From positions 2,372 to 66,371 of the forward strand of contig VMGD01000005.1 in the NCBI GenBank assembly GCA_007376405.1: a DNA stretch of 64,000 bases, in the 5' to 3' direction. A program made the translations under genes and the position numbers. Source of the stretch: Microgenomates group bacterium Gr01-1014_7 (GTDB lineage Bacteria > Patescibacteriota > Microgenomatia > Daviesbacterales > UBA10151). Shown here one piece after another: positions 23,932 to 62,468 of the stretch (position 1 is its first letter; the number at the start of each line of letters is the position of its first letter). The notes below the pieces were generated by a model. That model did not search any database. It saw only the letters and a list, made by a program, of their open reading frames with translations, and was not told the DNA's origin.

Positions 23932-25788
23932 TTATATCCCAAACTTGAACTCTTTATCCTGATCTAATTTAAAATCAGCTTTTTGGGAACCGTTGATTTT
24001 AATTTTATACTGAAAATCTTTGGCTCCGGGTTGTTTTTGAATTAACAGCTTATATTGATCCTGTGGAGAATATGGAATTTCATATTCTATTTCCAGCTTT
24101 CTGCTATTTTGCGGCCTGACCTGGATAAATGCTTCAAAAACGGTTTTTCCCAGATCTGCTATGGTATTAACAGTATCCTCCGACCCTTTGGAAGAAATAA
24201 GCTTACTGCCAGCCGGCACATAAAATCTGACATAATCCCGGTTAATCCCGTTTAGCCAGATATTAAAAGCCTGGGGATTTTTATATTCAACCGTAATTTT
24301 TTTGGTAACTTTCCCCCCGCTTATTTTAATTTCCTGAGTAACTGCCTGCTCAACATATAAATTTGATTTCCCCCCGGCAAAATTGGAATCATTAATATGC
24401 AAATAGTCTCCGTCAAACTCTTTTATCTGCCCTGTCCAGTTTAACTTGGCCAAACCACTCTGCAAAGCTTTATCATGCATATAAAACATGATGTGCTTGT
24501 GGTTTGCCAGCCTTGCCACAGTTTCAATAAGGGCGGGAAGTTTTTCAACATCCGCTCCCAAAGCTTTGGCCAGAATTTGCTGCATCAAAACTCCCAACAC
24601 TGCCTTTCTGTCCTTTTCTCCTTTGGCAGCAATTTCCGCATAAGATTCCAGTTCATAAATAACGTTCGGACAATTGCATCTTTTATCTATTTCTGCTGAG
24701 TATTTGGTTCCAAAAACATCAATAGGACCAGTTACTTCAATTAATTCTTCTACTACTTGCGAGTCTATATAAATAATCCCGTCAAAAGGTAAACCTTCTC
24801 CCAAAAGCTGATACATTCTTTCAAACTCTTTGGCCGAGGTTGGCACATCAGGAGAAATATTAGAATCCCTCATACTCCAGGCAGACCGGGGCTTACCGGA
24901 GACTTCAGGCAAATATTTAACAATAGGGGACGGGGGAGTCAGAGGACAAATTTTCGTCAGACAAACATTCAATAATTTTTCATCCAGCCTGTAAATATCA
25001 TCGGAGGTGGTAGCACTAACTTGCCCGTTTTTAAGCTGCAGCGTGGCAAAAGCGGTCATAAATCCCCCTGTTGCCCGGATTTCTTTGTCATTTTGAAAAA
25101 GCAGCAGATAGTTTTTCTGGGAGGGAATTCCCAAAGCAGAAGGAGCCAGAGTTAAGGCTACTTTGCCCTCTTCCACTGCCACTGCCGCACCGGCTATAAA
25201 ATTTTTAGCCAATTCTATGTTCTTTCTGATCTTTTTATTGCCAAAGCTCTCCGGGTATTTACCGGTATTGATATTTTTAACTGCCTGCGCGCCTCTTTTT
25301 AAATTATTTTCCACTTTATCCAAAAGAGTTACGGATTTATCCAGAATTTTAAGCGCTTGCGAAACCCGGTCCGGTCCGCTTTTTGGATGACCATCAAATC
25401 CCAACTCTACTTTACTTGATTCTAAATTAGTAAGGATTGTACTGAGCGCAGTTAAATCCTCAACCCCTCCTGACACTAAACCCTTAACATCTGAATAATA
25501 ACCACCCACCAAAGGAACAGCCTTCAACCAGATTAAAAAGGTCAAGGCAAAATTCATTTTCTGCAAACCATTTTTTGTGGCTGTAGTTTCGTTTTTTAAC
25601 TGGTCATAATTTTGGGCTTTGTATGCGGATATCAAACTTTTACTGTGAGATGAAACTTCTTTAAAACCAAGATAGATAAATATTGAGGGAATAATTAACA
25701 GTATTGCCAAAACAACCGGAATTCTAATCAGATTTTTCTTAAATCCGGACATCCGTTTCTTTTTAAAACTGTAATTTTGTCTATCCAT
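23932..25788 (-). CDS. DUF4012-like membrane-anchored protein (start taken at the internal ATG at 25788, abutting the sugar-transferase stop)
   Basis: N-terminal TM helix. The motif LLLFQNDKEIRATGGFMTAFATLQLKNGQV resembles the DUF4012 NNAE(L)R-TGG signature, and the gene lies next to an initiating sugar transferase. Confidence 0.55.
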   Translation of the reverse strand: MDRQNYSFKKKRMSGFKKNLIRIPVVLAILLIIPSIFIYLGFKEVSSHSKSLISAYKAQNYDQLKNETTATKNGLQKMNFALTFLIWLKAVPLVGGYYSDVKGLVSGGVEDLTALSTILTNLESSKVELGFDGHPKSGPDRVSQALKILDKSVTLLDKVENNLKRGAQAVKNINTGKYPESFGNKKIRKNIELAKNFIAGAAVAVEEGKVALTLAPSALGIPSQKNYLLLFQNDKEIRATGGFMTAFATLQLKNGQVSATTSDDIYRLDEKLLNVCLTKICPLTPPSPIVKYLPEVSGKPRSAWSMRDSNISPDVPTSAKEFERMYQLLGEGLPFDGIIYIDSQVVEELIEVTGPIDVFGTKYSAEIDKRCNCPNVIYELESYAEIAAKGEKDRKAVLGVLMQQILAKALGADVEKLPALIETVARLANHKHIMFYMHDKALQSGLAKLNWTGQIKEFDGDYLHINDSNFAGGKSNLYVEQAVTQEIKISGGKVTKKITVEYKNPQAFNIWLNGINRDYVRFYVPAGSKLISSKGSEDTVNTIADLGKTVFEAFIQVRPQNSRKLEIEYEIPYSPQDQYKLLIQKQPGAKDFQYKIKINGSQKADFKLDQDKEFKFGI

Positions 25789-26423
25789 TACACTGCTCCT
25801 TTGCCGGATAAAACAGCCGGAATAGTTTTTAGAAGAAGCCAAAGGTCATAAATGATTGAGCGTTTCTCTACATATGAAGCATCCATTTGTACTCTTTTAT
25901 CAAAATTAATCTCCGATCTTCCGGAAACCTGCCAAATACCGGTAATTCCCGGTTTGCCGGATAAAATAATCTTAACATATTTTCTGGATGAGGGATATTT
26001 TACCTGTTGATGTTCCAGCTCATCCGGATAATACGCACGCGGTCCAACCATACTCATCTCCCCTCTGAGCACATTCAAAAGCTGAGGTAGCTCATCCAGC
26101 GAATGCTTGCGGATAAACTTACCAACCGGTGTAATTCTGGGATCATTATAAAGTTTATAACTTCCCTTTTTATATTCTTCATAAAGAGCTTGAAATTTTG
26201 GATCTTTGCGCAAAAGATCATGCGCATTGGCAATCATTGAACGGAATTTATACATTTTGAAAAGCTTGCCTCCTTTTCCCACTCTCATTGGGGTATCTGC
26301 AAAAATAGGGCCTGTCGAGTCAACTTTTATGGCCAGTGCAACTAGTAAAAGTATCGGCAATAAGAAGATTAAACCTAGAACTGAACCAATGACATCTATA
26401 AATCTTTTTACAAATTGATACAT
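25788..26423 (-). CDS. Polyprenyl-phosphate phosphoglycosyl transferase (initiating sugar transferase, small PglC/WbaP C-terminal-domain type)
   Basis: KRFIDVIGSVLGLIFLLPILLLVALAIKVDSTGPIFADTPMRVGKGGKLFKMYKFRSM...ELPQLLNVLRGEMSMVGPR are the bacterial sugar transferase motifs. Confidence 0.85.
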   Translation of the reverse strand: MYQFVKRFIDVIGSVLGLIFLLPILLLVALAIKVDSTGPIFADTPMRVGKGGKLFKMYKFRSMIANAHDLLRKDPKFQALYEEYKKGSYKLYNDPRITPVGKFIRKHSLDELPQLLNVLRGEMSMVGPRAYYPDELEHQQVKYPSSRKYVKIILSGKPGITGIWQVSGRSEINFDKRVQMDASYVEKRSIIYDLWLLLKTIPAVLSGKGAV

Positions 26424-26448
26424 ATGCAGAATAAAGACATTCTATATA

Positions 26449-27486
26449 CTACACCAAAGATACAACTGCCTGCTTAAAATTTTTAACAAAGTTTTCTTTA
26501 CTAAAACGGTCCGCATTTTCTTTGCAGTCAGCAGGGTTAATTTTCTTTGAATCTAATTTTTTAATTGCGCCTGCTAATGATTCTACCGATTGAGTATCAA
26601 AAAAAAGTCCCGTTTTATTATCAATAACGGTTTCCACAACTCCTCCATCACGAAAAGCGATCACCGGTTTACCTAAAGCCTGTGCTTCCAGCACGACTAA
26701 CCCAAAATCTTCAATTCCAGGAGTAATTAATGCTCTGGCACCGGCCAAAATATTAACAACCATTTCATCGCTTAAATTTCCCTGTATAATTTTTAATTCT
26801 ACTCCTAAATTTTTGCACGCTGCCTCTGCCAGATCAAATCTTTTATAAATATTGGGCCTTCCTACTACTACAAAATATCCTCCGTCCCAGCCAGGGGCTG
26901 GTCCGCCTCTGGTGGAAAAAGTTTCTATATTTTTAAATCTTGCTAGATCTATAAAAGGATAAACTACTTTTGAATCTAACCTGTAAATTTTTTTTATTCT
27001 TTTTCTGGCATTTTCCGACCCGGCTAAAAAGAAATCCACACGGCGTGCAGCCACCTGATCGTAAATCCGCAGCTTAGTCATTAACAATTCTCCAATTCCA
27101 TAATTCCCTTCGCCTGAAAAATGCCATAAAAACCGTGGGGGGGTATGACAGTAACTTATATGTATTGTTCCGGGCTTTGTAATTACTGATTTGGCAAATC
27201 TGGTGGTGTGAGAAATTACCAGATCATATCCGGAAAAATCAAACTGTTCAAAAGCAATCGGATAAAAGGGGAGTAATGCCTTATAAAGACTCCTCCACCC
27301 GGGAATTTTCTGTAAAAAAGACGTGATAATTTTTTTTGATCCAAATCTTTTTACTAACTCCTGATTAGAAGCATCATAAACCGAAGTAAAAATTGGTGCA
27401 TCAGGATATATTTCACAAATCCCCTCCAAAATCCTCTCCGCCCCACCCCACTGCACCAGATCATCATGGACTATTGCAACCCGCAT
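26449..27486 (-). CDS. Glycosyltransferase family 4
   Basis: N-terminal RVAIVHDDLVQWGGAERIL and C-terminal ...EDFGLVVLEAQALGKPVIAF (EX7E-type). Confidence 0.8.
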   Translation of the reverse strand: MRVAIVHDDLVQWGGAERILEGICEIYPDAPIFTSVYDASNQELVKRFGSKKIITSFLQKIPGWRSLYKALLPFYPIAFEQFDFSGYDLVISHTTRFAKSVITKPGTIHISYCHTPPRFLWHFSGEGNYGIGELLMTKLRIYDQVAARRVDFFLAGSENARKRIKKIYRLDSKVVYPFIDLARFKNIETFSTRGGPAPGWDGGYFVVVGRPNIYKRFDLAEAACKNLGVELKIIQGNLSDEMVVNILAGARALITPGIEDFGLVVLEAQALGKPVIAFRDGGVVETVIDNKTGLFFDTQSVESLAGAIKKLDSKKINPADCKENADRFSKENFVKNFKQAVVSLV

Positions 27487-28586
27487 TTTGTGTATACCTC
27501 CAAAGTCTGTCCTGCCATCTTTTTCCAGCTAAAAAGCTTCACTCTGTTTTTGCCTTTTTCTATTAACTTTTTTCTTAAATTAACATTTTTCAGAACCTGA
27601 GAAATTTTGTTGACCATATCGTCTATCTTATTAGGGTCAAAATAAATCGCCGCTTTCCCTGCCACCTCCGGCAACGAGGCTGTATTGGAAGTTACAACGG
27701 GACAACCAAGCGCCATTGCCTCTAAAACAGGTAATCCAAATCCTTCTTCAAAAGAGGGGATTATCAAACACTCTGCATTTTTATACAAAGCAACAAGTTC
27801 TTCATCCGTCACAAATCCTGCATAAATTATCCCTTTCTCCTGCTGATCTTTTTTTATTCTTTGCCAAAAATAACTATCCCCTCCTGCCAAAATAAGTTTC
27901 AAATCCGGATTTGTCTCTCTTAATTTCAAAAACGCGGTAATCAACCCCTCCACATTTTTATGCGGATGGGCATTACCAACATAAAATGTATATGGAGGTT
28001 TTATATCAAATTTATCCAAAACTTTTTTACTTTTTACTTTTGACTTTAAACTTATTATTCTTTCATCAACCGCTTCCGGTGTAACGACTATTTTTTCAGA
28101 ATCCACCCGCCATTCATTAATTAGAAGCTCTCTCACGGAGTTTGATGGAACTAGAATTTTGCAGGATTTGGTTACAGCATTCTTAAAAACTCTTTTATAT
28201 CCAAATTGCTTTATTTTAAAAGTAAAAGGATTAAGGGTGGTTGCTCTTTTCATCTGATGATGCTGGTGAATAAGATCATGAATTGTTACCACAAATTTTC
28301 CGCTGTAAAAAATAGGGACATTAAAATGGGGAAAATGTACCAGATCAAACCGGTGTTTTTTTAACAGTTTAGGCAATTGAAACTGTTCGGCAAACCCATA
28401 CCATTTAAAATTAGCCTCTGACTTATTAAAGTTTCCTGCTTGTTTAAAATTATCCAGGTCTTTTGGCAAAAGAAATATAAAATACTCATTCTCTTTATCC
28501 AGCACCTGAAGATTACTAATAAGATTGCGCAAATACCTGCCTACTCCGGACTCATTTAAAAACCTGGCATCAATACCAATTTTCAT
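27471..28586 (-). CDS. Glycosyltransferase family 4
   Basis: C-terminal EEGFGLPVLEAMALGCPVVTSNTASLPEVAG. Confidence 0.8.
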   Translation of the reverse strand: MKIGIDARFLNESGVGRYLRNLISNLQVLDKENEYFIFLLPKDLDNFKQAGNFNKSEANFKWYGFAEQFQLPKLLKKHRFDLVHFPHFNVPIFYSGKFVVTIHDLIHQHHQMKRATTLNPFTFKIKQFGYKRVFKNAVTKSCKILVPSNSVRELLINEWRVDSEKIVVTPEAVDERIISLKSKVKSKKVLDKFDIKPPYTFYVGNAHPHKNVEGLITAFLKLRETNPDLKLILAGGDSYFWQRIKKDQQEKGIIYAGFVTDEELVALYKNAECLIIPSFEEGFGLPVLEAMALGCPVVTSNTASLPEVAGKAAIYFDPNKIDDMVNKISQVLKNVNLRKKLIEKGKNRVKLFSWKKMAGQTLEVYTKCGLQ

Positions 28587-29774
28587 TTATTTTTTGCCCA
28601 ATTCTTCATAAATCTGAGAGAGTTTTCCGGCTATTTGATCCCAGTTGTATTTCTGTTTTACTAATTTTCTTGCATTGTCTGCAATTTTTTTGGCAAAAGA
28701 TGGATTTTTAATTAGCTCAATTGCCGCCCTGGCAATATCTTCCGGGGTATCCCTGATAATTACTTCAACCCCATCTCTGGCATTTGTTCCCCCAATCCCA
28801 ATCGATGTTGTTACAACCGGCAAACCGGAAGCAAATGCCTCAAAGTTTTTATATCTGGTACCACCTCCCCCGTAAATTGGTGCAACCAAAACCCTAGCAG
28901 CTTGATAAACTTCTCTTACATCTACTACTTCATCAACCCTAATATCTGACGACTTCAAACTATTAAAGAAATTTTTGGCATCTTTGCCAATGATCCATAG
29001 TTTTGCATTGGGCATTTCTGCAGAAATAACAGGCCAAATCTTACTTACCAGAACCTTAACTGCTTCTCTATTTTGCAGCCAGGTGAAATTTCCCAGATAT
29101 AAAATAATTGGATTTTTTGATCTGTTTGCAACAGCAGTATTAAAATAATCTATATCCACCCCGTTCGGGACAATATCCGCATCCAGGCCGGGTAACTGAA
29201 ATTTCATAGTTTTTTTGTCCTCCTCGGACATAGCCACAACTTTTGCCGATTTATCCCAGAATTTCTTCTCCCAGAATTTAAGCTTTGCCACATCCACATA
29301 TAAAAAAGGTTTTAATGGAAAAACAGGAAACTCATCAACAAAATGTTTATAAACTAAATATTCAATAGTTTGCTCAACCAGCAGAATTGGAATTTGTGTC
29401 TTTGGAATATGCGGCATAACATAAAAAGTTTCCGCGTGAATTAAGTCAAAATCTTCTTTTTTTAATCTTTCCTCAATTGCTCCCCTTTCTCCCCTGGCCC
29501 AATTTCTGATAACTAAAAACGGGTAAACCGAGAAAGCAGTTCTTAAAATATTGTTTAATGTCCAGGGTCTTTCCGGTCTATTAAAAACTCTAACCTCTTT
29601 ACAGAATTTCTCCAGTTCCGATACATACTCTTTTTCATTTTCATTTTTTACCAGACAAAAAAGGGTAATCTCATGACCCAAAGCAGATAATCTTTTAATC
29701 AGGTTATATGACCTGGTCTGTCCACCGGTCAAAAGAGGGTAAGGTAAGTATGGAGTTAACATTAACACCTTCAT
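28587..29774 (-). CDS. Glycosyltransferase family 4
   Basis: N-terminal MKVLMLTPYLPYPLLTGGQTRSYNL and C-terminal GGGGTRYKNFEAFASGLPVVTT. Confidence 0.8.
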   Translation of the reverse strand: MKVLMLTPYLPYPLLTGGQTRSYNLIKRLSALGHEITLFCLVKNENEKEYVSELEKFCKEVRVFNRPERPWTLNNILRTAFSVYPFLVIRNWARGERGAIEERLKKEDFDLIHAETFYVMPHIPKTQIPILLVEQTIEYLVYKHFVDEFPVFPLKPFLYVDVAKLKFWEKKFWDKSAKVVAMSEEDKKTMKFQLPGLDADIVPNGVDIDYFNTAVANRSKNPIILYLGNFTWLQNREAVKVLVSKIWPVISAEMPNAKLWIIGKDAKNFFNSLKSSDIRVDEVVDVREVYQAARVLVAPIYGGGGTRYKNFEAFASGLPVVTTSIGIGGTNARDGVEVIIRDTPEDIARAAIELIKNPSFAKKIADNARKLVKQKYNWDQIAGKLSQIYEELGKK

Positions 29775-31267
29775 GGTTCTGAATCCTCTGGTGTCAGTGG
29801 ATTAGTTATTACTCTTAAATCGGCTATGACAAAACGTGGATTATCTTCCAGTATTTTAAAATGCCTTAGTACCCAGTTTGTTTTATTATCTCTATTTACA
29901 GAAATATAGTGAGTAACTCCGTAATCCGTAACAAGTTCCATTAAGGGTAGTGCCTCTACAGCCCATCCGGGCCTATTAATCTGATATAAAAAAGCTGTGT
30001 CACCGTTATATGGAGCAACCACCATTGCTTCTTTTGGCAAAATTTGGTCGGCAAATTTTCCCGCCTCTATTATGGGCGGATTATTAATTTTATAAAGCTC
30101 TTTTACTTGAGTCCATGTAAAATAAAATGTAAGAATTAAAAATAAGGTGGCAAGTAGTATTGTCCAAATCCGGGGAAGAAAAGTATTTGCTCCTTTAATT
30201 AAACTGACAAATCCCAAACTAACAAAAACGGAAGCAATCGGAGTAAAGATAAATTGGTAATAATCATGACGGACATTGCCGGTTGCAAAAATTACAAAAT
30301 ATAAAAACATAGCTAGTGCCCAAACATGTAGAAAGAAACTGCCGTTTCTGGGACGCATAATAAGACCCAAAAAGAATAAAAATGCTCCGGTTACCCCCAA
30401 GATTTCCCTGCCTATCCTTTCCGATACAATCCACCACCAGAAAGCAGGACGGAAACGAATCCCGTCGCCATTCATAAGCCAACTTGAAGCCGGAATTCCC
30501 TCAGGAAAATTTAGTATCCAAAATCTCCATAATATAAACGGCATTAGAGAAAGTACTGCAAAAAGAATAAAACTCTTCGGAATTTTTTTAATAGAACCAT
30601 ATTTAACAAATAAAGAATAGATAAGCGGAGGTACAAAAAAGATCGCCCATGGTTTAATTAAGAAGGCAATTGCCGTAAAGATAAATCCCCAAAACCCCCA
30701 TTTTCCCCCTCCTTCCCATATCCATCTATCCACAAAGCAAACCATCCCTAAAGCAAAGAATAAAAAAGTTGGCTCAGGAAGGGTTGTCCTTGAAAAAAAT
30801 ACATTAAATGGCAACAATGCATAAATTGCCGCCGTCAGTAAAGATACTGCAACTCCCAAATATCTTTTACAAATTAAATATAGAAAAACTATACTGCCCA
30901 GAGAAAACAGAATAGAAACCAGCCGGTCATATTTAATATCTATTCCATAAATCAAATACAGAGGATAAACTGCAATATTATAAACAGGAAATTCAACAAA
31001 ACGGAAACGGTTTAAATTGGCAATAGGATTTTCGGAAACCCCTGACATATCATCATACTTTGGAAAAAAAGGATTAAATCCTTCCTTGATAAAGTTTCTG
31101 GTAACCGAGGCTGTATCCACCTGTCTCCATGAATGCCAATCTGCCACAGGTGAATCAATCTTATAAATCCTTACAATGAAAGCTAAAATTAATATTAATG
31201 CTAACCAAAAAAATTGATTCTTAAAAAGATTTAACATATTTTTCAAATCTGGATGCAGCCAGTGCAA
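29771..31267 (-). CDS. GT-C-type integral-membrane glycosyltransferase (ArnT/PMT-like)
   Basis: 498 aa with about 11 TM helices, a first loop containing ADWHSWRQVDTASVTRNF, and a soluble C-terminal domain. Confidence 0.5.
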   Translation of the reverse strand: MHWLHPDLKNMLNLFKNQFFWLALILILAFIVRIYKIDSPVADWHSWRQVDTASVTRNFIKEGFNPFFPKYDDMSGVSENPIANLNRFRFVEFPVYNIAVYPLYLIYGIDIKYDRLVSILFSLGSIVFLYLICKRYLGVAVSLLTAAIYALLPFNVFFSRTTLPEPTFLFFALGMVCFVDRWIWEGGGKWGFWGFIFTAIAFLIKPWAIFFVPPLIYSLFVKYGSIKKIPKSFILFAVLSLMPFILWRFWILNFPEGIPASSWLMNGDGIRFRPAFWWWIVSERIGREILGVTGAFLFFLGLIMRPRNGSFFLHVWALAMFLYFVIFATGNVRHDYYQFIFTPIASVFVSLGFVSLIKGANTFLPRIWTILLATLFLILTFYFTWTQVKELYKINNPPIIEAGKFADQILPKEAMVVAPYNGDTAFLYQINRPGWAVEALPLMELVTDYGVTHYISVNRDNKTNWVLRHFKILEDNPRFVIADLRVITNPLTPEDSEP

Positions 31268-32659: not shown

Positions 32660-33205
32660 TTAAATTAAAATTTTCCTTCCCAGTTTATAAAGAAAATAAA
32701 TCGAAGCAATGATTCCCATCCAAACTATAATTCTGACAAAATAATTTGATGGATAAAATCTCAAGGTTGTCTTGGTAAACCAGCCATGTCCGTTAACCTC
32801 AAATTTAGTGGATCCCCAAAATTTTGGAGTTCCATCAGAGTAAAACGGTTCAAAACCATTGACATAGAAAGAATTTCTTAGGGGATACACTAATTCTTCA
32901 AGAAAAGTTGAGTCTGTATGTTTTTTTATGGCAATCCATGAATATTCAGGCGGACGGTTTATTCTAATGGGCGGGAAAGGTAGTCTTGATTTTTCCTGAT
33001 AATTTGAAACATAAAAAGGTACTATAAATTCCCGGAAATTATTGGAAAAATATCCTGCAACATTTGGAATTTGCCAAGTATCTCCTGCTAAATCTGATTT
33101 ATCAGAGCTGGGTAATGATTTGAAATCGGAAATTTTGGAGGGTCCCGGCCAAAGCATATAGACAAGAAGAAACGCTGAAAAGATTATATATAGCTTTTTT
33201 GTCAT
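32660..33205 (-). CDS. Hypothetical bitopic membrane protein
   Basis: 181 aa with TM helices at both ends and no recognisable motif. Confidence 0.4.
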   Translation of the reverse strand: MTKKLYIIFSAFLLVYMLWPGPSKISDFKSLPSSDKSDLAGDTWQIPNVAGYFSNNFREFIVPFYVSNYQEKSRLPFPPIRINRPPEYSWIAIKKHTDSTFLEELVYPLRNSFYVNGFEPFYSDGTPKFWGSTKFEVNGHGWFTKTTLRFYPSNYFVRIIVWMGIIASIYFLYKLGRKILI

Positions 33206-33822
33206 TGAAACAACCTTGCTCTCCCAACTCTATATTTGGGATCTTTTAACTTTCTTTCGCCTATTATCTCTGCCGGTATTCCTCCAACAATTACAAACTC
33301 CGATACATCTTTTGTCACTACTGCTCCGGCTGCTACAACTGCTCCTTTACCAATCCTGACACCAGGAAGGATAATTGCTCTTGGTCCGATAAAGACGTAA
33401 TCCCCTATTTCTACAGAGCCGGTTATAGCACGAAAATCTTCCGAGTTTATATCATGTTCGGAAGTATAAATCATCACCTCGGATGCAATATCAACATGGC
33501 TACCAATCGTAATCTTATCTCGCCCATCCAAAAATACGCCATATCCAATAACTGAATCTTCTTCTATTTTAAGTTTTTTTAAAGAAAAAAAACGGCAATC
33601 CATGTGGATGCTTGAATATTTACCGATTTTTGCGCCGGCAATCCTCATTAAAAATCGGCGTAGGTGATGAGAAGGAATATTTACCAATAAGTGAAGCACG
33701 AACAGACTGAAATCAGCCATATAATTATACAATCTGTTGCCCACCTTTCCCTGAGCTTCTTCGAGAGTTAATTCTCTGCCCATCCGATCATGAAATATAG
33801 CCATAGGTAAATTATATCGCAA
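33202..33822 (-). CDS. Hexapeptide-repeat (left-handed beta-helix) acetyltransferase, WcaF/WbbJ-like sugar O-acetyltransferase
   Basis: IGYGVFLDGRDKITIGSHVDIASEVMIYTSEHD...IGDYVFIGPRAIILPGVRIGKGAVVAAGAVV contains hexapeptide repeats. Confidence 0.8.
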   Translation of the reverse strand: MRYNLPMAIFHDRMGRELTLEEAQGKVGNRLYNYMADFSLFVLHLLVNIPSHHLRRFLMRIAGAKIGKYSSIHMDCRFFSLKKLKIEEDSVIGYGVFLDGRDKITIGSHVDIASEVMIYTSEHDINSEDFRAITGSVEIGDYVFIGPRAIILPGVRIGKGAVVAAGAVVTKDVSEFVIVGGIPAEIIGERKLKDPKYRVGRARLFQ

Positions 33823-55300: not shown

Positions 55301-55795
55301 CCAAAAAAGAATTAAAAATGGTAAAGCTGCTACAAAAAACATTGATGTATGAGTGAAACGGTGCCAGATTTGAGTCATCATATATGGGTTAAACATATAA
55401 AATAATCCTGCTAAAGTGGCGTATATTTTTTTATCTCTACCTATAATTGAAAGGGTTAACAAATACATTCCAAATCCCATAAAGAAAAGTAGGGTACAGA
55501 ATAAAATCGCTTGAATACCTAGAGGCCCTAGACCAAGGAGTTGAAAGAAGGAAAGGAAGAAGTATAAGGTAATTGATGTAATTGCCTGAGGAATTAGGAA
55601 TCCGGGTGCTACAGCTTCCCACCAGATATATCTGGCTATTTGAAATATCCTGATGGGGTTATATGTTGGTAAGCCTACATCTCCCCCACCATAGAGGTGG
55701 CCATCTTTAAACCATGCAAATATTAATAATAAAGATAAGATCAGAAAAAATAAGGCTGGAAGATAGTATTTATTAACCTTTTTATATATAACCAT
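52382..55795 (-). CDS. Giant polytopic membrane protein (1137 aa): N-terminal GT-C-like multi-TM domain of about 430 aa, an extracytoplasmic domain of about 650 aa, and a C-terminal TM anchor. Possibly AftD/DUF3367-like arabinofuranosyltransferase family
   Basis: N-terminus ...AWFKDGHLYGGGDVGLPTYNPIRIFQIARYIWWEAVAPGF...; clear paralog of 56089..59583. The family assignment is tentative. Confidence 0.55.
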   Translation of the reverse strand: MVIYKKVNKYYLPALFFLILSLLLIFAWFKDGHLYGGGDVGLPTYNPIRIFQIARYIWWEAVAPGFLIPQAITSITLYFFLSFFQLLGLGPLGIQAILFCTLLFFMGFGMYLLTLSIIGRDKKIYATLAGLFYMFNPYMMTQIWHRFTHTSMFFVAALPFLILFWRLWIKSGNYLYLLYFLLVNLLASYMFGTIAFVFPFWLIMSLFTVSEIFLPWENKSRSLKVLWRSLFGLVIWILVNSWWLMPVATIGSGVASQQHDIRGSIFTLVAISKQAILPYSLQMVNSYYVFDQAELGEIYKSFFFRLIPWLGVSIIFYGIICALKRKYLASLVLIYLVIIMLAKGTSTPFGQPFLLLFSKFFALGLLRNPFEKLGILLPLVSSILFVLGIEGLFSWFGKYLGNLGKKMVLLMLITVMGVYYWPMYKGTIFGIVGKPNYVEIPQTYLDANLWLNQKVNQDSITDGKILHLPLTRSDVATYRWKNGYHGIESSASLFTALPSISHGVNLKRIDDPLTALSLIFHKPYYEDTSKILKLLQDFNVRFIILHKDMDWLGGDTYNPFEAEKVLNNLSFIKKEAEFGNLVVYKVAEEFFGSKIEIPNNISLVYPQKSSMQLWPWLASEKDANFLSPVNDRVDETLKSKASETLIFPENAFSYPQASSSSLENTTKQLTTQLNILLGAAQYVKQLGTMHTKTEATVQNIILASQKLIEGTIREASIDEYSNLIDKIFPELDDNSTLYFDVAKTTIGDILKLHEITLSVIGKGPDTLNRIREFLIKEKTFPLFVYKGNVSEAGERQLYNFSINSDGRYELILTNSKIKDAYLDKLSKLNLQINNEAVTLSGKEVGNILTFGEIGFKKGLNEISLSTPSAANLISSPNSLTKIGNINILKETIEMSVSKNNPSAIGGPLLQTSGEDIFKLSFDAIIPANVGLYIQIIQDTDNEQNGQKVPRISFLQHLNQFDWQGSYNIKLPALSISTREAKIRLIALIPPEVSNFNTTSVEIKNLRLIRILNNQILLRAVELNNEKKIVGTIDFKRKNAVEYEGNLRLTRPGFVFFKEAYDPGWELELRRDNKVFKPYQHYIGYLYGNAWWVEEPGEYNFKIEFKPQQKVTLGIYLGLAGLLGVILLIVRSKIKKNL

Positions 55796-56105
55796 ATTTT
55801 AAAAGTTTTGGCAGATAAAATAAACTTGAGATGATTAATATGCCAAATCCCAAACTACCAAAAAAATTTGCAATATCAATAAAGTCTAAAATGAAAAAAA
55901 CAACCATAATAAAAAATAATATCATTGACAAGACAACGAAAGCTTTTTTTAACCATGGTTGGGATATTAAAAGCAGTGTCATCAATGTAAAAAATAAAGT
56001 TTGAAATAGAGAAACCCACGAATCAAATTTAAAACCGGAGTTTATTATCAAGAAAAATCCAAAGACAAACAAATATAAAGTTATTTTCTTAATTGCTTTT
56101 TTCAT
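55782..56105 (-). CDS. Small polytopic membrane protein (107 aa), partner of the 1164-aa protein
   Basis: Four hydrophobic segments; paralogous to 52044..52385. Confidence 0.5.
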   Translation of the reverse strand: MKKAIKKITLYLFVFGFFLIINSGFKFDSWVSLFQTLFFTLMTLLLISQPWLKKAFVVLSMILFFIMVVFFILDFIDIANFFGSLGFGILIISSLFYLPKLLKYGYI

Positions 56106-59100
56106 GGCTCCATTTTAAATATTTGCCAACTAAATGAACTATTGTAAAAATTAATAAACTGAATACGCTAATGTATATACCTAAATATAAATACTTATCC
56201 CCTGAAAATCTAATTCTAAATTTATAGTTTCCTTTTTTATCTATAAACCATCCATTACCATACATATTAGCAAAGAAGTGTTTTGGTACCATATACTCTT
56301 TTTCACCGTCAAACAAGGTTAACTTCCAGTTATCGTTAAACGTTTCGCTGAAAATCATGTAGCTTGGCTTATCCAAAACTATATTCCCTTCATATTCCAA
56401 TGGAGCCTTTTTAGTGTAATTCAAACTTACAATTTGAGATGTCTGATTTGCAGAAATGCTCCTAAGGAATAACAGGTTATCTAAAATTCTAAATACCCGA
56501 ATATTACGGATAGATATGCTCGAAGTCTTTTGAAAATTAAATTTCACTTCCTGTTTATCACATAGCCATTTCTCTGCTATGATAGATTTACAATCATCCC
56601 AAGGGATTGATACAACTTGGAATGAAAAATTGGCGGAATTTTTTCTGGGAGATATATAAAGGTTATAAGTTTTCCAATATTTATTGTAAGGATCGAACTC
56701 TACTGGTTTTATAAATTGATAAGATCTCTGCTTAATTAATGCATCAGCCACTAAATAATCATCTGGATCACTATCTTGCAGTATCCTTACAATTGGGTCA
56801 CTTCCTTTCTGTGTCCAATATTCAAAAGATAGTAAGTAGGTGCTGTTGGGATGGAAAGGCTCTACCTTTATCTCGTACGAATTTGGATTGTGTTGTCCAG
56901 AGACTATCCGTATCTCTCCTTGCTTATCTTTGATTAAATTTACAGAATTTTGCATATTAAAACTAATCTCATGCAGACCTTCATTTAAAGGTATTGTCCC
57001 ATAAGATATTAGATCATCCTTTATTTGACCAGTTCTTGACTGAACTGTTTTGTCTACTTGTAAATCTAATTGACTTAAATTTTTTTGATAAATTGGAGAT
57101 ACCTTTGAATCTGCCATCAATATCTCATATTCTCCGTCGACTGGTATAAAAAACCTATGTACTTGCCTATTGTATCTGGCCAGTTCTCTTTCACTTATCA
57201 ATTCGTAAATTGGTTGCATTTTCATATCGATCATTCTCATTCTTAAAGTTTCTATTGCTTGACTTAATACCGCTTTATCTTGATCTTTTGCTCTTTGATA
57301 AATTTGTCTCAAAACTACTTCATGACGGGAAAATAATATTTTAAATTCAGTAGGTGCTTCAACACTAATTAATCCATCTTTAAAGATTTTATCGACCGCT
57401 TTATTTAGATGTTGTATATATCTTTGAATTATTGGAGATACTGATTTATTTGGATCTTTATCCTGCATCCTATATATCTCTACTAACCTCTTTCCTGCAA
57501 ATGTGAGATGAATATTTTCTTTTGTTTTTTGATACCCACTAGCCTGAATAAACTCCTTTAAAATTATCATTGGATATAGTGGTAAATCAGGCAAAAATCT
57601 AGCTGGTGGTAACTCCTTTAAGGAATTCTCTTCTGATGCTAATTGTGTTGAAGAGATTTTCACAATAGTGGTGGGGATCAAAATTGTTTGTTTATAACCA
57701 GATAAATTTGTAAGCTCGTTACTATCTGATTTATCAGACAGTAGTATTCTAGTTGGATCGCTTCTTAAAAACCAGAACCAAGTGTCATAATTTGAACCAA
57801 GTTTTAGATAATTAAAGTAAGAAGCGGTGTAGATTTTACTTAAAAAGCTTTTTTCATCCATTTCATATACAGTTACTTCCTCAATCTCTTTTTGTTTTTT
57901 TAAAAAAGGCAGCGAGTCTAAAATTTTCCCTATTTCTTCAGGCGATTGAACCCCTGAAGCTTGCCAGTTAATATCGTAATGAAGAACGATAAATCGGACA
58001 TTAAAAGCTCTGAATAGTTCCTTCAAATATTCAGCATATTTTATCTGATCAAAGCTAGTCATCAGATCAAACCCCTGCAATGCATCGTCCAAATAAGATA
58101 AATTAAAACCCATGGATATTGAAGGATTTGATGTAAAAAAACCAGCATTTGACTCTGCTCCAGAATAACCATATTGCCACCTATAGGTAGAGGCATCAGT
58201 AATAGCTAAAGGTAAATGTAAAATATTACCGTCTTTTTTTTGATTCTTAATCCAAAGATTCGCTTGCTGGTAATAGGGAGGAATCTCTACAAAATTCCTT
58301 TTCTCCAAGGTCCCAAACAGTGTCCCTGTCCAAAAAGGCCAATGATAAACTCCAAAAAATAATCCAAAACTTAAAATTAAAACTGCCTTGCCTGCTAAAT
58401 TATTCCTCTTCCAAAAATAAGTAGCAAGATTAAAAAAGCCGACTGAAAAAAGTACACTACCTGCAAAAGGAATTAATAATCCGAATTTTTCAAATGGATT
58501 TCTTAATACTCCCAAAAAAAAGAATTTTTCAAACATATAAGGATAAAAATAGCCTAACGGAGGGGCAACTCCTTTTGCTAAAAAGACTGCTAAAATAAAA
58601 AGTATGCTCCAAAAAATCAATTCTCTACTCTTTTTCGTATAATAAATACCGATTATGGTAAACGAAACCCCTATCCAGGGAATAAATAAAAAAAGCGGAT
58701 GCTTAAAAACTTCCCCTAATTCTTGTCTTTGGAATAAATAAAAGGAATTTAACCCGGGAAGTGAATATGGGATAATACTTTGCTCACCAATTGCAAACAA
58801 GGTCGAAAGAGTATCACCTACTGCATGTTGAGCAGAAGCCAAAGTAGGCAAAATAAAAAACGCTGGAAGAATCCACCAGGTATTGGTTAATACCCAAAGT
58901 ATCAACCCTAAACTGAAGGATGCCGAAATTTGAGAAGCTTTTTTCCATCCAATCCATGGAATGAATATTTCAAAGAGGGTGTACATACCAAGAAGAAACC
59001 ATAAGGTAATAGCGTAAGCCAATGTGCCGAACATATAGGAAAAAATTAAATTGACTGCTATAAATATGATTAAACTTGTAAATTCTTTCTCTCTCATCCA

Positions 59101-59583
59101 TTTTCTCCAAAAGAGTAAAAGTAATGGCAAAGAAGCTACAAAGAAAAATGTGGTGTGGGTGAATCTATGCCAGACCAAAACCATCATATAGGGATTGACC
59201 ATATAAAAAAGGCCTGCAAGTATTGCCATCCCCCTATTTTCATTCTTCATAATATTTTTAGCCAGCAAATACATTCCAAAACCCATTAGAAATAGCAAAA
59301 TACCAAAGATTACTGCTTGGATCATAAAAGCAGGAAGACCCAAGTTTTGAAGAAATGCAAAAAAAACATAAGCAGGCAGAGCAGTCAAATTTTGAGGTCT
59401 AGGAAAACCCGGCGCGGTTTCAGTCCACCATGGCTGCGATGCCATCTGAAGTACTCTTTGGGGATTATGTGTCGGTAAACCTACATCTCCTCCGCCATAC
59501 ATCAACCCATAATGAAACCATGAAAACATCACGACTAGAGTGATAAACAGGTAAAGAGAACCAGCTAGTATATTTCTCTTCAT
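56089..59583 (-). CDS. Giant polytopic membrane protein (1164 aa), tandem paralog of 52382..55795
   Basis: N-terminus ...SWFHYGLMYGGGDVGLPTHNPQRVLQMASQPWWTETAPGF... is colinear with the 1137-aa protein and has the same domain architecture. Confidence 0.55.
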   Translation of the reverse strand: MKRNILAGSLYLFITLVVMFSWFHYGLMYGGGDVGLPTHNPQRVLQMASQPWWTETAPGFPRPQNLTALPAYVFFAFLQNLGLPAFMIQAVIFGILLFLMGFGMYLLAKNIMKNENRGMAILAGLFYMVNPYMMVLVWHRFTHTTFFFVASLPLLLLFWRKWMREKEFTSLIIFIAVNLIFSYMFGTLAYAITLWFLLGMYTLFEIFIPWIGWKKASQISASFSLGLILWVLTNTWWILPAFFILPTLASAQHAVGDTLSTLFAIGEQSIIPYSLPGLNSFYLFQRQELGEVFKHPLFLFIPWIGVSFTIIGIYYTKKSRELIFWSILFILAVFLAKGVAPPLGYFYPYMFEKFFFLGVLRNPFEKFGLLIPFAGSVLFSVGFFNLATYFWKRNNLAGKAVLILSFGLFFGVYHWPFWTGTLFGTLEKRNFVEIPPYYQQANLWIKNQKKDGNILHLPLAITDASTYRWQYGYSGAESNAGFFTSNPSISMGFNLSYLDDALQGFDLMTSFDQIKYAEYLKELFRAFNVRFIVLHYDINWQASGVQSPEEIGKILDSLPFLKKQKEIEEVTVYEMDEKSFLSKIYTASYFNYLKLGSNYDTWFWFLRSDPTRILLSDKSDSNELTNLSGYKQTILIPTTIVKISSTQLASEENSLKELPPARFLPDLPLYPMIILKEFIQASGYQKTKENIHLTFAGKRLVEIYRMQDKDPNKSVSPIIQRYIQHLNKAVDKIFKDGLISVEAPTEFKILFSRHEVVLRQIYQRAKDQDKAVLSQAIETLRMRMIDMKMQPIYELISERELARYNRQVHRFFIPVDGEYEILMADSKVSPIYQKNLSQLDLQVDKTVQSRTGQIKDDLISYGTIPLNEGLHEISFNMQNSVNLIKDKQGEIRIVSGQHNPNSYEIKVEPFHPNSTYLLSFEYWTQKGSDPIVRILQDSDPDDYLVADALIKQRSYQFIKPVEFDPYNKYWKTYNLYISPRKNSANFSFQVVSIPWDDCKSIIAEKWLCDKQEVKFNFQKTSSISIRNIRVFRILDNLLFLRSISANQTSQIVSLNYTKKAPLEYEGNIVLDKPSYMIFSETFNDNWKLTLFDGEKEYMVPKHFFANMYGNGWFIDKKGNYKFRIRFSGDKYLYLGIYISVFSLLIFTIVHLVGKYLKWSHEKSN

Positions 59584-60620
59584 TTTGCCCTCACAAAGGA
59601 CAGGAAACTTTTAAACAAAGGCGTATTTGACAGCAAGTTTAACATACTTTCTTCTCCCTTTTGATTTATATCCCCTCTTATAGTAAATCTTTTCCTAAGT
59701 AAACTGGGAAGATTCCTTAATATCCAAATTATAGCTGTGAATCTTGTAAACCCCAGACTAAATTTCCTCTTTATAAGAATTTCCCATAGGCCGGCTGCAA
59801 TATACAATAGGATTGTTATAGGTAAAGCTTTAAGCAAAAGAAAAACTGGATAATTTTTAATCATAGTTGCAAGTCTATTCTTGTTAAAATGCCATCTCAC
59901 CTTAACTCTGACTATGTTAGACAAATCTGTTTTTCCCCTCTTGTGATAAATTACTGCATCTGGCTGATATAAAACCTTTAAACCTTTTAGTCTTATCCTT
60001 AAAGCAAAATCCATATCTTCATACCCAATACCGAAATCTGGATCAAAGTCTCCCACAATATTTACAACACTTCGGCGTATGGCTGATGCAGATCCGCTAG
60101 CAGAAAGAATCTTTGTTTGTCGGTCATACTGACCCAAATCTTTCTCCCCTGCCCCAATTGTTATTGGATTACCATATATATCCATGGTTTCTCCAGCGCT
60201 ATCTATCATTTTATGATCATAAAAATATAATAATTTTCCTTGTATCAAAGCTGCTTTTGGCTCCTTTTGAAAAAGATTAATAATCTTTTGTAAATATCCG
60301 GACTTAAATTCAATATCATTATTAAAAAAAGCTATATATTCTCCAGTGGCATTTTCCAAACCAAGATTAAGACCCTGGCTGTACATATTGATAGGATTGC
60401 GAATTATTTTAAGCCTTCGATTCTTACCAAACTTTCGCTTTATAATTTGTACACTTCTGTCCATCGAAGCGTTATCCACCAAAAAAACCTCATAATTTGG
60501 GTAGTCACAATTTAAAACTGAAGTTAATGAGTCAATCACCAAATTAAGCTGCAAACCATTGTAGTTAGAGATAATGATAGACACTTTAGGCCACTTCCCA
60601 ACCCATAAACTTTTTCTCAT
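59580..60620 (-). CDS. Glycosyltransferase family 2 with C-terminal TM segments
   Basis: VSIIISNYNGLQLNLVIDSL...VFLVDNASMDRS...FFNNDIEF (GT-A) plus C-terminal hydrophobic helices. Confidence 0.75.
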   Translation of the reverse strand: MRKSLWVGKWPKVSIIISNYNGLQLNLVIDSLTSVLNCDYPNYEVFLVDNASMDRSVQIIKRKFGKNRRLKIIRNPINMYSQGLNLGLENATGEYIAFFNNDIEFKSGYLQKIINLFQKEPKAALIQGKLLYFYDHKMIDSAGETMDIYGNPITIGAGEKDLGQYDRQTKILSASGSASAIRRSVVNIVGDFDPDFGIGYEDMDFALRIRLKGLKVLYQPDAVIYHKRGKTDLSNIVRVKVRWHFNKNRLATMIKNYPVFLLLKALPITILLYIAAGLWEILIKRKFSLGFTRFTAIIWILRNLPSLLRKRFTIRGDINQKGEESMLNLLSNTPLFKSFLSFVRAK

Positions 60621-61276
60621 TTTATATTTTTAATACACAAAATTCCAGCTGCAATCTTGGGAATGAAGTAGACAATTGGCGACAATAAAAAGGATACTGC
60701 AAAATAGAATGAAATTAATACTCTGTTGTGATTAATACGAATTAAACCTGCTTCCGACCAAAGTGGAGAAAATCCTATCCCAAACACTTTATAACCCCTT
60801 TTCCTAAAATCTTCTTCTGACCATCCTGATTTATGAACCTGATGAGGATTGTCTCCAAGATAACCATGGGGCTGCTTCATAAATTCTCGTGGTGTACCTA
60901 TTATAACTCTTTGCCTGGCTATTGACTCTATTAAAGACAGTAACTCTTCTCCCCTCTTATAATCTAAATGCTCGATTACTTGTGAGCAGAAAACTACATC
61001 ATATTTCTTTCTTTTTATAATTTCTTGCTTGACAAATTTTACTATATCCGCTTTATAAACTTTTGTAAAAGTACTTCTTTTTGATGCAATTTTGACATTT
61101 TTTGCATATAGATCTACTCCTGTAACCTGCCATTCTTTCCCATCCGCCAAAAGTTCCATTAGATTGCCGTCACCACACCCGAGATCTAAAATAGTCTTTG
61201 GGTTACCTAAACTCTGCCTTAGTAACCACATATATGAGAATGGTATGGTAACTATTAATCTATTGATGAATTTCAT
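60617..61276 (-). CDS. Class I SAM-dependent methyltransferase
   Basis: Motif I ILDLGCGDGNLMELL and ...VVFCSQVIEHL. Confidence 0.7.
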   Translation of the reverse strand: MKFINRLIVTIPFSYMWLLRQSLGNPKTILDLGCGDGNLMELLADGKEWQVTGVDLYAKNVKIASKRSTFTKVYKADIVKFVKQEIIKRKKYDVVFCSQVIEHLDYKRGEELLSLIESIARQRVIIGTPREFMKQPHGYLGDNPHQVHKSGWSEEDFRKRGYKVFGIGFSPLWSEAGLIRINHNRVLISFYFAVSFLLSPIVYFIPKIAAGILCIKNIK

Positions 61277-62468
61277 TGAAAATTTCTTCTGCTCGTTTAT
61301 CCCAAGACCAATTCTTTTTTAGCATGTCCAATCCTTCTGCACCTATCCTATCTCTCATTAATTGGTCATTTAATAAACTTATAACCACATTGGCAAATTT
61401 TTCTAAATTACCAATATCTACTTTAATCATTCCTTTAGGATAATACGATTTGTAAGAATCTAGGTCAAATCCGATGCAAGGTAATCCAAAAGCCATAGCT
61501 TCGCCAGCTGCCATACCCCCTGAATCATAAAATGAAGGGTGTAGTACAATTTTACTTTGGGAAAAAATCTTATACTTATCTCCCCCATCAAATAGATAAC
61601 CCTTAACAATAATGTTCTTTTCTAATTTTAAATTTTTAATTTTTATTTTTAGATTTTTCATTAACGGACCGTCTCCTATCATAATCAATCTGGCATCGCT
61701 CTTTTGATCTACCACATATCTCCATATATCAATGAGCTCTATAACACCTTTCTGTGGGTGAAAGCGGCCTTGAAAAACAGCATCATAAATTTTAGGCAAT
61801 TTTTTAAATTTAACTTTCCATTTTCTAATTTGTTCTAAATCTACAGCACCATAGACAATGATTACTCGTCCCATTTTATTTAGTCTTGGAAAATTTAGCC
61901 TCTCATTTTCATTATTAACTAAAACAAAATCTGCAAATTTGTTAATCAAGTTTCTAGTAGGCAATTGGATAAACCAGTAAACAAGGGCGCTTAATTTATA
62001 AGTATTATCTCTTTTCCCCTCGGTAAAACCTACCCAAGGTTTGGGAGCTGTTTGATACCATGCTGCTACCCACTTTATTTTGGGAAATCGTAACTTTAAA
62101 ATCCATGCCGGAATTGAATCCATCCAAAATTCTGATGCTGAGTAAACTATCGTTTTGGGTTGATTGTCCAAACTCACAGTCAACCCAACTCTAATTCCTT
62201 CAAGAATCCTTGCTAAGTAATTTATCAAAAAACCAAAATTTCTCCATGGTTTCATACTTGATACAAGATAGTTGACACCTGATAGACTTAACTGCTGTCT
62301 TTTACATAATTCGTATCCTTCTTGAGAAACCCAAATACTAACCTTAGCACGTTTATTCCAACGTCGGGCAAATTCTATAAAGATTCGGTCACTTCCTGAC
62401 AACCCCTGACCATAAGCAGCTAAGGCAAAGATGTGTATTTTTTTAATTCCCATACTTTTATATGACAA
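61260..62468 (-). CDS. Glycosyltransferase family 4
   Basis: C-terminal ...HPSFYDSGGMAAGEAMAFGLPCIGFD. Confidence 0.75.
   Translation of the reverse strand: MSYKSMGIKKIHIFALAAYGQGLSGSDRIFIEFARRWNKRAKVSIWVSQEGYELCKRQQLSLSGVNYLVSSMKPWRNFGFLINYLARILEGIRVGLTVSLDNQPKTIVYSASEFWMDSIPAWILKLRFPKIKWVAAWYQTAPKPWVGFTEGKRDNTYKLSALVYWFIQLPTRNLINKFADFVLVNNENERLNFPRLNKMGRVIIVYGAVDLEQIRKWKVKFKKLPKIYDAVFQGRFHPQKGVIELIDIWRYVVDQKSDARLIMIGDGPLMKNLKIKIKNLKLEKNIIVKGYLFDGGDKYKIFSQSKIVLHPSFYDSGGMAAGEAMAFGLPCIGFDLDSYKSYYPKGMIKVDIGNLEKFANVVISLLNDQLMRDRIGAEGLDMLKKNWSWDKRAEEIFNEIHQ

Follow-up and report, generated by a model that had tools for sequence, protein, structure and literature searches.

Cells of the candidate phyla radiation (CPR, or Patescibacteria) live attached to hosts, and their surface chemistry is almost unknown. 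In the pathways dependent on polyprenyl-phosphomannose (PPM) and decaprenyl-phosphoarabinose (DPA), several membrane glycosyltransferases of the GT-C fold share one donor synthase. [quoted passage not shown] For Gram-positive wall polymers a scheme has been described in which a GT-A lipid-sugar synthase, a flippase and a GT-C act together, including variants with a soluble GT-A enzyme and with a Wzx-type flippase (PMC8035078). In the exopolysaccharide (EPS) locus of Bifidobacterium longum 105-A a DUF4012 gene lies beside the priming glycosyltransferase (PMC5412050), and DUF4012 is a CPR-enriched family (PMC6744442). Here, we describe a glycan locus at positions 23932-62468 of a 64,000-nucleotide stretch of DNA (the window) from Microgenomates group bacterium Gr01-1014_7, in which two logics already known from other systems appear to be joined.

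We put the probability at about 0.6 that this is a conserved envelope glycopolymer locus, in which a lipid-linked glycan of Wzx/Wzy type would be elaborated outside the membrane by GT-C enzymes. The kinds of component are already known, and automated annotation tags some of the homologues as AftD family or GT39. What is new is the occurrence in CPR of AftD-like enzymes with a separate partner of four TM (4-TM), the gathering of nine to ten GT-Cs in one block, and the fixed site of the block beside the division cluster. Literature linking CPR with GT-C or AftD enzymes was searched and nothing relevant was found, and a 2024 overview of CPR/Patescibacteria mentions neither polysaccharides nor glycosylation.

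A conserved locus and its proposed pathway

The inventory was built from the open reading frame (ORF) listing and a Pfam scan of each ORF of at least 100 aa at 23932-62468. TM counts are predictions from a hydropathy scan, and genes are called here by their first coordinate.

23932-25842, minus: DUF4012 protein, large outside domain behind a single N-terminal TM (PF13196, 88 bits)
25788-26423, minus: small monotopic phosphoglycosyl transferase (PGT), 211 aa, predicted to initiate on polyprenyl phosphate (polyprenyl-P) (Bac_transf, 205 bits)
26449-27486, 27471-28586 and 28587-29774, minus: three GT4, no TM predicted (Glycos_transf_1 and Glyco_transf_4)
29771-31267, minus: PMT_2-type GT-C, 498 aa, 9 TM, acidic residues after TM1 (PF13231, 49 bits against a cut-off of 26)
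31221-32657, minus: Wzy_C protein, 10 TM predicted (PF04932)
32660-33205, minus: 181-aa protein, hydrophobic at both termini (no Pfam match)
33202-33822, minus: hexapeptide-repeat acyltransferase (PF00132, 57.5 bits)
33845-34966 and 34963-35979, minus: two GT4, mutual paralogues, E 1e-44 (Pfam)
35997-37397, minus: divergent PMT_2-type GT-C, 466 aa (via orthologues)
37372-38811, minus: PMT_2-type GT-C, 479 aa, LWLDEA motif after TM1 (PF13231, 60.8 bits)
38787-39542, minus: GT2, 251 aa (PF00535, 70 bits)
39539-40477, minus: GT4, 312 aa (PF00534, 95 bits)
40477-41187, minus: GT2 resembling polyprenyl-phosphate sugar synthases, 236 aa, no TM predicted (NCBIfam and PDB matches)
41184-41876, minus: class I S-adenosylmethionine (SAM) methyltransferase (Methyltransf_11 and related)
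41873-42670, minus: GT2, 265 aa (PF00535, 38.9 bits)
42683-44197 and 44160-45785, minus: two paralogous PMT_2-type GT-Cs, GADEE and SGDEE after TM1 (PF13231, 42.4 and 17.9 bits)
45787-46485, minus: class I SAM methyltransferase (Methyltransf_11, 80 bits)
46418-47683, minus: Wzx-type (MOP family) flippase, 11 TM predicted (Polysacc_synt, 77.8 bits)
47703-50360, minus: AftD-like GT-C, short class, 885 aa, with N-terminal TM bundle, outside domain and C-terminal TM (hhalign, TM scan)
50563-52047, plus: GT-C, 494 aa, QDDFFHF motif after TM1 (fold search)
52044-52385, minus: 113-aa 4-TM mini-protein, probable partner of 52382 (TM scan)
52382-55795, minus: AftD-like GT-C, long class, 1137 aa (paralogy to 56089)
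55782-56105, minus: 107-aa 4-TM mini-protein, probable partner of 56089 (TM scan)
56089-59583, minus: AftD-like GT-C, long class, 1164 aa (PF11847, 34.6 bits against a cut-off of 26)
59580-60620, minus: membrane-associated GT2 of the SpsA/EPS/GT21 kind, 346 aa (Pfam GT2 families)
60617-61276, minus: class I SAM methyltransferase (Methyltransf_12 and related)
61260-62468, minus: GT4, 402 aa, first gene of a module GT4 - methyltransferase - GT2 - AftD-like (PF00534, 90 bits)

An earlier note, made from the letters of the window, had listed a PGT, a DUF4012 protein, seven GT4, four GT2, three methyltransferases, a hexapeptide acetyltransferase and a Wzx-like flippase, and Pfam returned each of them. 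Its O-antigen-ligase-like protein corresponds to the Wzy_C protein 31221, its DPM1/ArnC-like synthase to 40477, and its nine or so polytopic GT-C-like proteins to nine that Pfam, paralogy, orthologue and fold searches assign to that class; profile and fold searches thus back the GT-C, GT4 and GT2 assignments as a whole. The description of the genes as contiguous on the minus strand holds for all but 50563-52047, and the two 4-TM mini-genes and the conserved 181-aa protein had been overlooked.

The gene order is shared with relatives. The 1164-aa protein 56089 is identical to the NCBI entry 'Uncharacterized protein G01um10147_459' of Microgenomates group bacterium Gr01-1014_7, its homologues come overwhelmingly from metagenome-assembled genomes (MAGs) of Daviesbacteria or Patescibacteria, and loci were fetched around these homologues from species-representative genomes. 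The conserved order runs GT4 - methyltransferase - GT2 - long AftD-like - mini-protein - long AftD-like - mini-protein - (opposite-strand GT-C), followed by short AftD-like - Wzx - GT2 - methyltransferase - methyltransferase - ArnC-like GT2, and then by GT4 - GT2 - PMT_2 - 35997-like - GT4 - GT4. Two Daviesbacteria assemblies (L032, L033) continue with hexapeptide - 184-aa protein - Wzy_C - PMT_2 - three GT4 - PGT, and the PGT, Wzx and Wzy_C genes are all kept in both. In nearly all related loci the gene of the 181-aa protein stands between the hexapeptide and Wzy_C genes. At the other end, metagenome loci were collected by their DUF4012 homologues; in 23 of these the flank was long enough, and all 23, with proteins 31-88% identical, show the succession PGT - DUF4012 - RecO - aminoacyl-tRNA synthetase - 296-aa protein - MraW - penicillin-binding protein (PBP) - Mur, nearly always with MraZ. 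The parts that vary are the upstream end and the segment 42683/44160/45787.

We hypothesize that these genes act in one pathway. The small PGT, which matches the C-terminal domain of WbaP/EPS_sugtrans (NCBIfam, E 5e-75), would prime polyprenyl phosphate on the cytoplasmic face, and the GT4 and GT2 enzymes would then assemble a lipid-linked oligosaccharide in the cytoplasm, where it may be modified by the SAM methyltransferases and by the hexapeptide acyltransferase, which probably acts in sugar acetylation. After export by the Wzx-type flippase, the glycan would be polymerised or transferred by the Wzy_C protein, probably together with the DUF4012 protein, the gene of which adjoins that of the PGT in every one of the 23 loci. 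The Wzy_C protein, also a weak match to the polymerase family TIGR04370, is likely a repeat-unit polymerase, with a ligase or an O-oligosaccharyltransferase as the alternatives. In parallel, the soluble enzyme 40477 would make a polyprenyl-phosphate monosaccharide, which Wzx, as has been proposed for GacK, or another protein would flip, and the six PMT_2-type and three (four on the contig) AftD-like GT-Cs would use this polyprenyl-P-sugar to extend and branch the polymer outside the membrane. The assignments to families and folds, the architectures, the gene order and the gene pairing are results of the analysis; the order of these steps, the donor sugar, the acceptor and the roles of the DUF4012 and mini-proteins are what we infer.

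Several matches point to the proposed function of 40477. Its top NCBIfam hits, all below the equivalog cut-offs, are AglJ (2.4e-27), ArnC (4e-16), PgfS, Dol-P-hexose transferase and PpgS, and its top solved structures are ArnC, the Pyrococcus DPMS (5mlz) and GtrB (5ekp), with E from 6e-13 to 5e-12; the top of the PDB list holds only polyisoprenyl-phosphate glycosyltransferases. By family resemblance, 40477 would therefore be a GT-A enzyme making polyprenyl-P-sugar, and the presence of this ArnC/DPMS-like enzyme in the same locus suggests that the GT-Cs may use a polyprenyl-phosphate-linked sugar donor. The membrane-associated GT2 59580 was also considered as a second lipid-sugar synthase. This assignment was unsupported: its best matches are to GT2 of the SpsA, EPS and cellulose-synthase types (HpsN, MftF and PgaC in NCBIfam; SpsA, chondroitin and cellulose synthases in the PDB), and ArnC appears only at E 0.0076.

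The earlier note saw in this combination the logic of extracytoplasmic glycan elaboration and not a simple Wzx/Wzy pathway. The elaboration is supported by the family assignments, which hold by profiles and folds; its product may be a lipoglycan, a wall polymer or a glycoprotein. PGT, Wzx and a marginal Wzy are all present, so that a Wzx/Wzy-type module exists as well and the pathway looks hybrid.

A number of observations weigh against the reading preferred here. The Wzy_C protein passes its cut-off only marginally (33.1 against 31.7 bits), and there is one clear lipid-sugar synthase, 40477, for nine to ten GT-Cs. No LCP (LytR-CpsA-Psr) ligase, WaaL-type ligase, Wzz/PCP (polysaccharide co-polymerase) or sugar-nucleotide pathway was found among the window proteins in domain scans, so that the window points to neither a particular sugar nor a particular acceptor. 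Neither mini-protein matched GtrA (PF04138) at E up to 10, and a profile of 20 AftD-like sequences gave no AftD match in the PDB at E up to 1. The strand switches divide the locus into at least three transcription units, and scans for promoters and terminators, which returned fewer matches than in shuffled sequence, were uninformative. The genes could, finally, serve more than one product.

GT-C enzymes and their probable small partners

The nine polytopic proteins of the window are all GT-Cs, six of the PMT_2 type and three AftD-like, and a tenth, also AftD-like, lies beyond the window. Each of the nine shows profile or fold similarity to solved GT-C enzymes, and four of them pass a Pfam cut-off (PMT_2 for 29771, 37372 and 42683; GT-C_AftD for 56089). 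They have 8-11 TM each, helix counts that agree with two structure models, and reading of the sequences showed an acidic motif directly after TM1 in all nine. The first-loop motifs are LDEA, GADEE, SGDEE, QDDFF, PYPELF, GGGDVG and NDFP, and in the three family alignments made the acidic motif is invariant or nearly so.

The largest of these proteins resemble AftD over their whole length, which strengthens the comparison with arabinan and mannan pathways that the earlier note had drawn. An AlphaFold model of 56089, made with 56 homologues (pLDDT 85, pTM 0.78), consists of a TM bundle of about 11 TM (residues 1-420), an alpha/beta domain (437-660), a helical bundle with a weak DUF5667 match (670-786), a beta-sandwich region (806-1126) and a single C-terminal helix (1129-1163). 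In a Foldseek search of the PDB the model met mycobacterial AftD (6w98) first, with E 1.1e-19, TM-scores of 0.49/0.44 and about 1450 alignment columns at about 10% identity; 6wbx and 6wby are further full-length AftD matches, and STT3 and PglB rank after AftD. The GGGD33 motif is kept in at least 90% of the 56 homologues. Thus, 56089 has the GT-C TM domain, the soluble GT-C domain, the beta-sandwich domains and the C-terminal membrane re-entry of AftD; it differs in the TM13-16 bundle, which is missing from the same chain, since the AftD-like proteins end after one C-terminal helix. Judging from the model, the beta-sandwich (CBM-like) domains of the long enzymes would be suited to holding a long glycan acceptor. 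The other long enzyme, 52382, is 34.5% identical to 56089 over its full length (hhalign >99.8%) and gives a weak GT-C_AftD match of 14.2 bits, and the short-class enzyme 47703, with no PF11847 match, aligns with 56089 over residues 17-562 (hhalign 99.9%). At the level of sequence, then, the evidence for a link to AftD is thin.

The two mini-proteins are paralogous (E 2e-9), and each of their genes overlaps the stop of its upstream neighbour, a long AftD-like gene. Among 36 long-class AftD-like genes of other genomes, 29 have a 4-TM ORF of 80-140 aa after them, and none of 33 shorter paralogues has one; no small ORF follows 47703 itself or any of its 19 orthologues. A hidden Markov model search of 1.84 billion representatives recovered 87 mini-protein clusters, all stand-alone proteins of 59-139 aa, and not one fusion to a long AftD-like protein was seen among these representative clusters. 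This model is a two-sequence profile that would not reach actinobacterial AftD in any case; the profile showed no sequence link to AftD and no PDB match. Given that the 4-TM ORF follows long-class genes that lack TM13-16, we suggest that the mini-protein may be a split-gene equivalent of AftD TM13-16, and each probably works with the AftD-like enzyme encoded just upstream. An identity with GtrA or SMR proteins was also considered and rejected at the sequence level: both window proteins lack Pfam and NCBIfam matches, and 28 relatives gave no GtrA/SMR match at E up to 1. The gene at 55782-56105 is kept in other genomes yet missing from public gene calls, which place a 54-aa ORF on the opposite strand instead.

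These features raise an alternative that we regard as unlikely, namely that the locus makes a lipoglycan or wall heteropolysaccharide after the manner of mycobacterial lipomannan (LM), lipoarabinomannan (LAM) or arabinogalactan synthesis. A short primer, lipid-linked or a glycolipid, made by GT4 and GT2 enzymes would be extended mainly outside the membrane by GT-Cs from one polyprenyl-P-sugar, the AftD-like enzymes performing late elongation or branching and the mini-protein supplying the TM13-16 bundle of AftD in trans. The full-length fold match of 56089 speaks for it, as does the dependence of nine to ten GT-Cs on one donor synthase, which resembles the PPM- and DPA-dependent pathways. In addition, AftD has TM12 and a TM13-16 bundle packing on TM8/9 where the CPR proteins stop after one C-terminal TM, the 4-TM gene is restricted to the long class and overlaps the upstream stop in the window, the predicted N-in/C-in topology of the mini-protein is compatible with TM13-16, and the module GT4 - methyltransferase - GT2 - AftD-like is found in archaea as well. 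However, the mini-protein profile has no sequence link to AftD, and the complete absence of fused long and mini-proteins among the 87 clusters also tells against it. UbiA and DprE1/DprE2, of the DPA pathway, were found neither in the window nor in the section of the contig read, and the complete, conserved set of PGT, Wzx and Wzy_C argues for a conventional backbone, as in the Wzx/Wzy-type pathway preferred here.

AftD-like proteins of about 800 aa also occur in archaeal MAGs of Bathyarchaeia, Nitrososphaerota and Methanomassiliicoccales. In Nitrososphaerota and Bathyarchaeia (L028, L030, L031) they close a module GT2 - GT4 - methyltransferase - methyltransferase - AftD-like, the GT4 of which is 35-41% identical to 61260; 40477-like GT2 genes lie near the archaeal AftD-like genes in L029, L030 and L031, and in L029, from Methanomassiliicoccales, two AftD-like genes enclose a 40477-like GT2 together with an 89-aa ORF of 3 TM. 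The module common to CPR and archaea may reflect inter-domain transfer. A broader view, which we hold to be doubtful, would join these threads: the locus would be mainly an extracytoplasmic GT-C assembly line for a branched lipoglycan or wall polysaccharide, analogous to the mycobacterial machinery for LAM and arabinogalactan and using a two-gene AftD with the mini-protein in place of TM13-16; the polymer would be a core component of the wall, which would explain why the block is inherited together with the genes of peptidoglycan synthesis and division. If so, the archaeal GT4 - methyltransferase - AftD-like modules would mark an inter-domain family of AftD-type glycan polymerases.

Among the PMT_2-type enzymes, the assignment of the divergent members came from their relatives. 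The protein 35997 has no Pfam match of its own, but 20 of 30 orthologues (58-76% identity) match PMT_2, with a best E of 3.4e-8; some are named GT39 by NCBI, and E36 and D56 near TM1 are invariant in the family alignment. In the family of 50563, D30 is invariant and D31 is kept in at least 90% of sequences. Family profiles of 35997 and 50563 found no match among solved structures and, in hhalign comparisons of these shallow profiles, were not linked to the other GT-Cs; orthologue scans and the fold search settled their assignments. Within the pair 42683/44160, the second protein is a full-length paralogue of the first (hhalign 99.4%), and the pair stands outside the conserved core, being missing at this position in L032 and L033.

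The abundance of this family brings in protein O-glycosylation, an explanation we find quite improbable. The Wzy_C family includes PglL-type O-oligosaccharyltransferases. A PglL-like Wzy_C protein might accordingly attach an oligosaccharide, made with the products of the PGT, GT4 and Wzx genes, as a whole to surface proteins such as those of the S-layer or pilins, and the PMT_2-type GT-Cs might O-glycosylate proteins directly, like actinobacterial Pmt; six GT-Cs in PMT_2 and orthologues named GT39 would fit. Yet MIR and PMT_4TMC domains were not found by Pfam in these proteins, PMT_2 also includes ArnT-like lipid and glycan transferases, the AftD-like enzymes with their beta-sandwich domains indicate glycan acceptors, and the locus shows no evident gene for a target protein.

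Inheritance and genomic setting of the block

The block does not behave as the 38-kb island that the earlier note had proposed: comparison of related genomes shows a conserved gene order across the clade, and the block runs on past 62468. Its position beside the division cluster was confirmed. The division and cell-wall (dcw) cluster, from FtsZ to MraZ, flanks the locus at 4989-20048, and a class II aminoacyl-tRNA synthetase, two proteins without assigned function and RecO lie between. This conserved synteny identifies a vertically inherited block of more than 60 kb, formed by the glycan genes and the RecO-dcw region, in the Daviesbacteria-like clade. A horizontally transferred island was rejected, the synteny being kept on both flanks despite the lower G+C at 36-62 kb. 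The region is AT-rich, as had been said, with 31-39% G+C against about 38-42% across most of the division cluster. Within the glycan locus the first third has 35-39%, the stretch 36000-62000 has 31-35%. The low G+C at 36000-62000 is probably due to the codon content of membrane proteins, not to recent transfer.

The exceptional plus-strand gene 50563 is divergent from 47703 and convergent with 52044. That several independent glycan pathways, for example one for capsule or EPS and separate decoration systems, are co-located here in a compact genome is very improbable: the strands do imply three or more transcription units, the upstream end and the 42683/44160/45787 segment differ between genomes and adjacency alone is weak evidence in gene-dense CPR genomes, but the order of about 25 genes is kept among relatives with proteins 35-88% identical, all genes are glycan-related with nothing unrelated interleaved, and the whole block has a single PGT, a single Wzx and a single clear lipid-sugar synthase.

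The flank beyond the window was read from the 78.7-kb metagenome contig ERZ27284378 k139_32958 (window coordinate = contig coordinate - 9402), on which the glycan locus extends past the window end. At the edge lies:

62559-64000, plus: 159-aa protein and a GFO/IDH/MocA oxidoreductase cut by the window end (contig context, Pfam)

Further on (L001, 1-6219) follow the fourth AftD-like GT-C, of 911 aa (hhalign 100% to 56089; weak PTPS_related match), and three further SAM methyltransferases. As relatives sit on contigs of 1.02-1.15 Mb, the glycan locus of about 44 kb would account for some 4% of the genome, about 1 Mb in size, of this ultra-small groundwater bacterium. Scans of the window for tRNA and Rfam families gave no matches.

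Some observations concern the surroundings. At 16023-16718 (minus), between the PBP and the first Mur ligase, lies a gene for a 231-aa protein with a PaaX_M (Cas2-like) domain; this junction is empty in most related loci, a few carry other unrelated ORFs there, and it seems to be a place within the dcw cluster where insertions vary. The 296-aa protein at 20376-21266 (minus), with one TM and no family match, stands between the aminoacyl-tRNA synthetase and MraZ, a position kept in all related loci. The MurB-like protein at 13939-14523 (minus) has only 194 aa and the FAD_binding_4 domain alone; a similar protein occupies the same position in relatives, and the clade may characteristically carry such a shortened MurB. 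Another SEDS protein, of the FtsW/RodA family (348 aa; 1095-2141, minus), separate from the FtsW of the dcw cluster, adjoins the genes of a 945-aa class I aminoacyl-tRNA synthetase and of ribosomal protein L21. Many 'binchicken' MAG records titled 'uncultured Gammaproteobacteria bacterium' (L003, L007, L010-L012, L014, L016, L018, L019, L022-L024, L026) carry the Daviesbacteria-type locus in the same order, and their organism label looks wrong.

Comparison with known systems

The locus is well defined and testable, and its function is read from homology. It extends the AftD-like architecture beyond Actinobacteria and indicates a small partner protein with a testable role. Although its proteins are 'uncharacterized' or 'hypothetical' in public records, they form a conserved block that can be annotated, about 44 kb long, and one large CPR lineage should owe a major envelope glycan to it.

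The block resembles Gram-positive Wzx/Wzy loci for capsule or EPS, such as the eps locus of B. longum 105-A, in its PGT beside DUF4012, in its series of GT4 and GT2 genes, and in its acetyltransferase, its Wzx and its Wzy_C-type membrane protein. It differs in the absence of a Wzz/tyrosine kinase module and of an LCP gene from the window, in its heavy content of GT-Cs and methyltransferases, and in having a fixed place beside the division cluster and not that of a variable island. The six PMT_2-type proteins share with ArnT and PMT (GT83/GT39) the PMT_2 domain, the acidic motif after TM1 and the GT-C fold; unlike them, they have about 450-540 aa and no MIR/PMT_4TMC, and are six divergent paralogues in one locus.

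With respect to mycobacterial AftD (Rv0236c family; 6W98), the CPR enzymes have the same GT-C domain of about 11 TM, the alpha/beta domain, the beta-sandwich domains and the membrane re-entry, and, as in the AftD-containing arabinogalactan/LAM machinery, several GT-C paralogues are clustered with GT2 and GT4 genes. However, the CPR proteins have 850-1180 aa against about 1400 aa, at about 10% identity, and carry an extra helical DUF5667-like bundle; they end in a single C-terminal TM without the ACP-binding TM13-16, a separate 4-TM gene following instead. The likely donor would come from a GT2 synthase of the ArnC/DPMS kind and not from the UbiA/DprE route to DPA, and the host is a CPR bacterium.

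The multi-component systems GtrA/GtrB/GtrX, CsbB-GtcA-YfhO and GacI/J/K/L likewise join a GT-A polyprenyl-P-sugar synthase to GT-Cs acting outside on a wall polymer, and the GacI/GacK variant is mirrored by the soluble GT-A 40477 and the Wzx-type flippase (PMC8035078). In the present locus, by contrast, no GtrA-family protein was detected, no GacJ-like partner lies beside the GT2, and AftD-like giants are found among the GT-Cs. Moreover, instead of one-to-one pairs there are nine to ten GT-Cs per clear synthase, a ratio in which the locus is more akin to the pathways of mycobacteria that depend on PPM and DPA.

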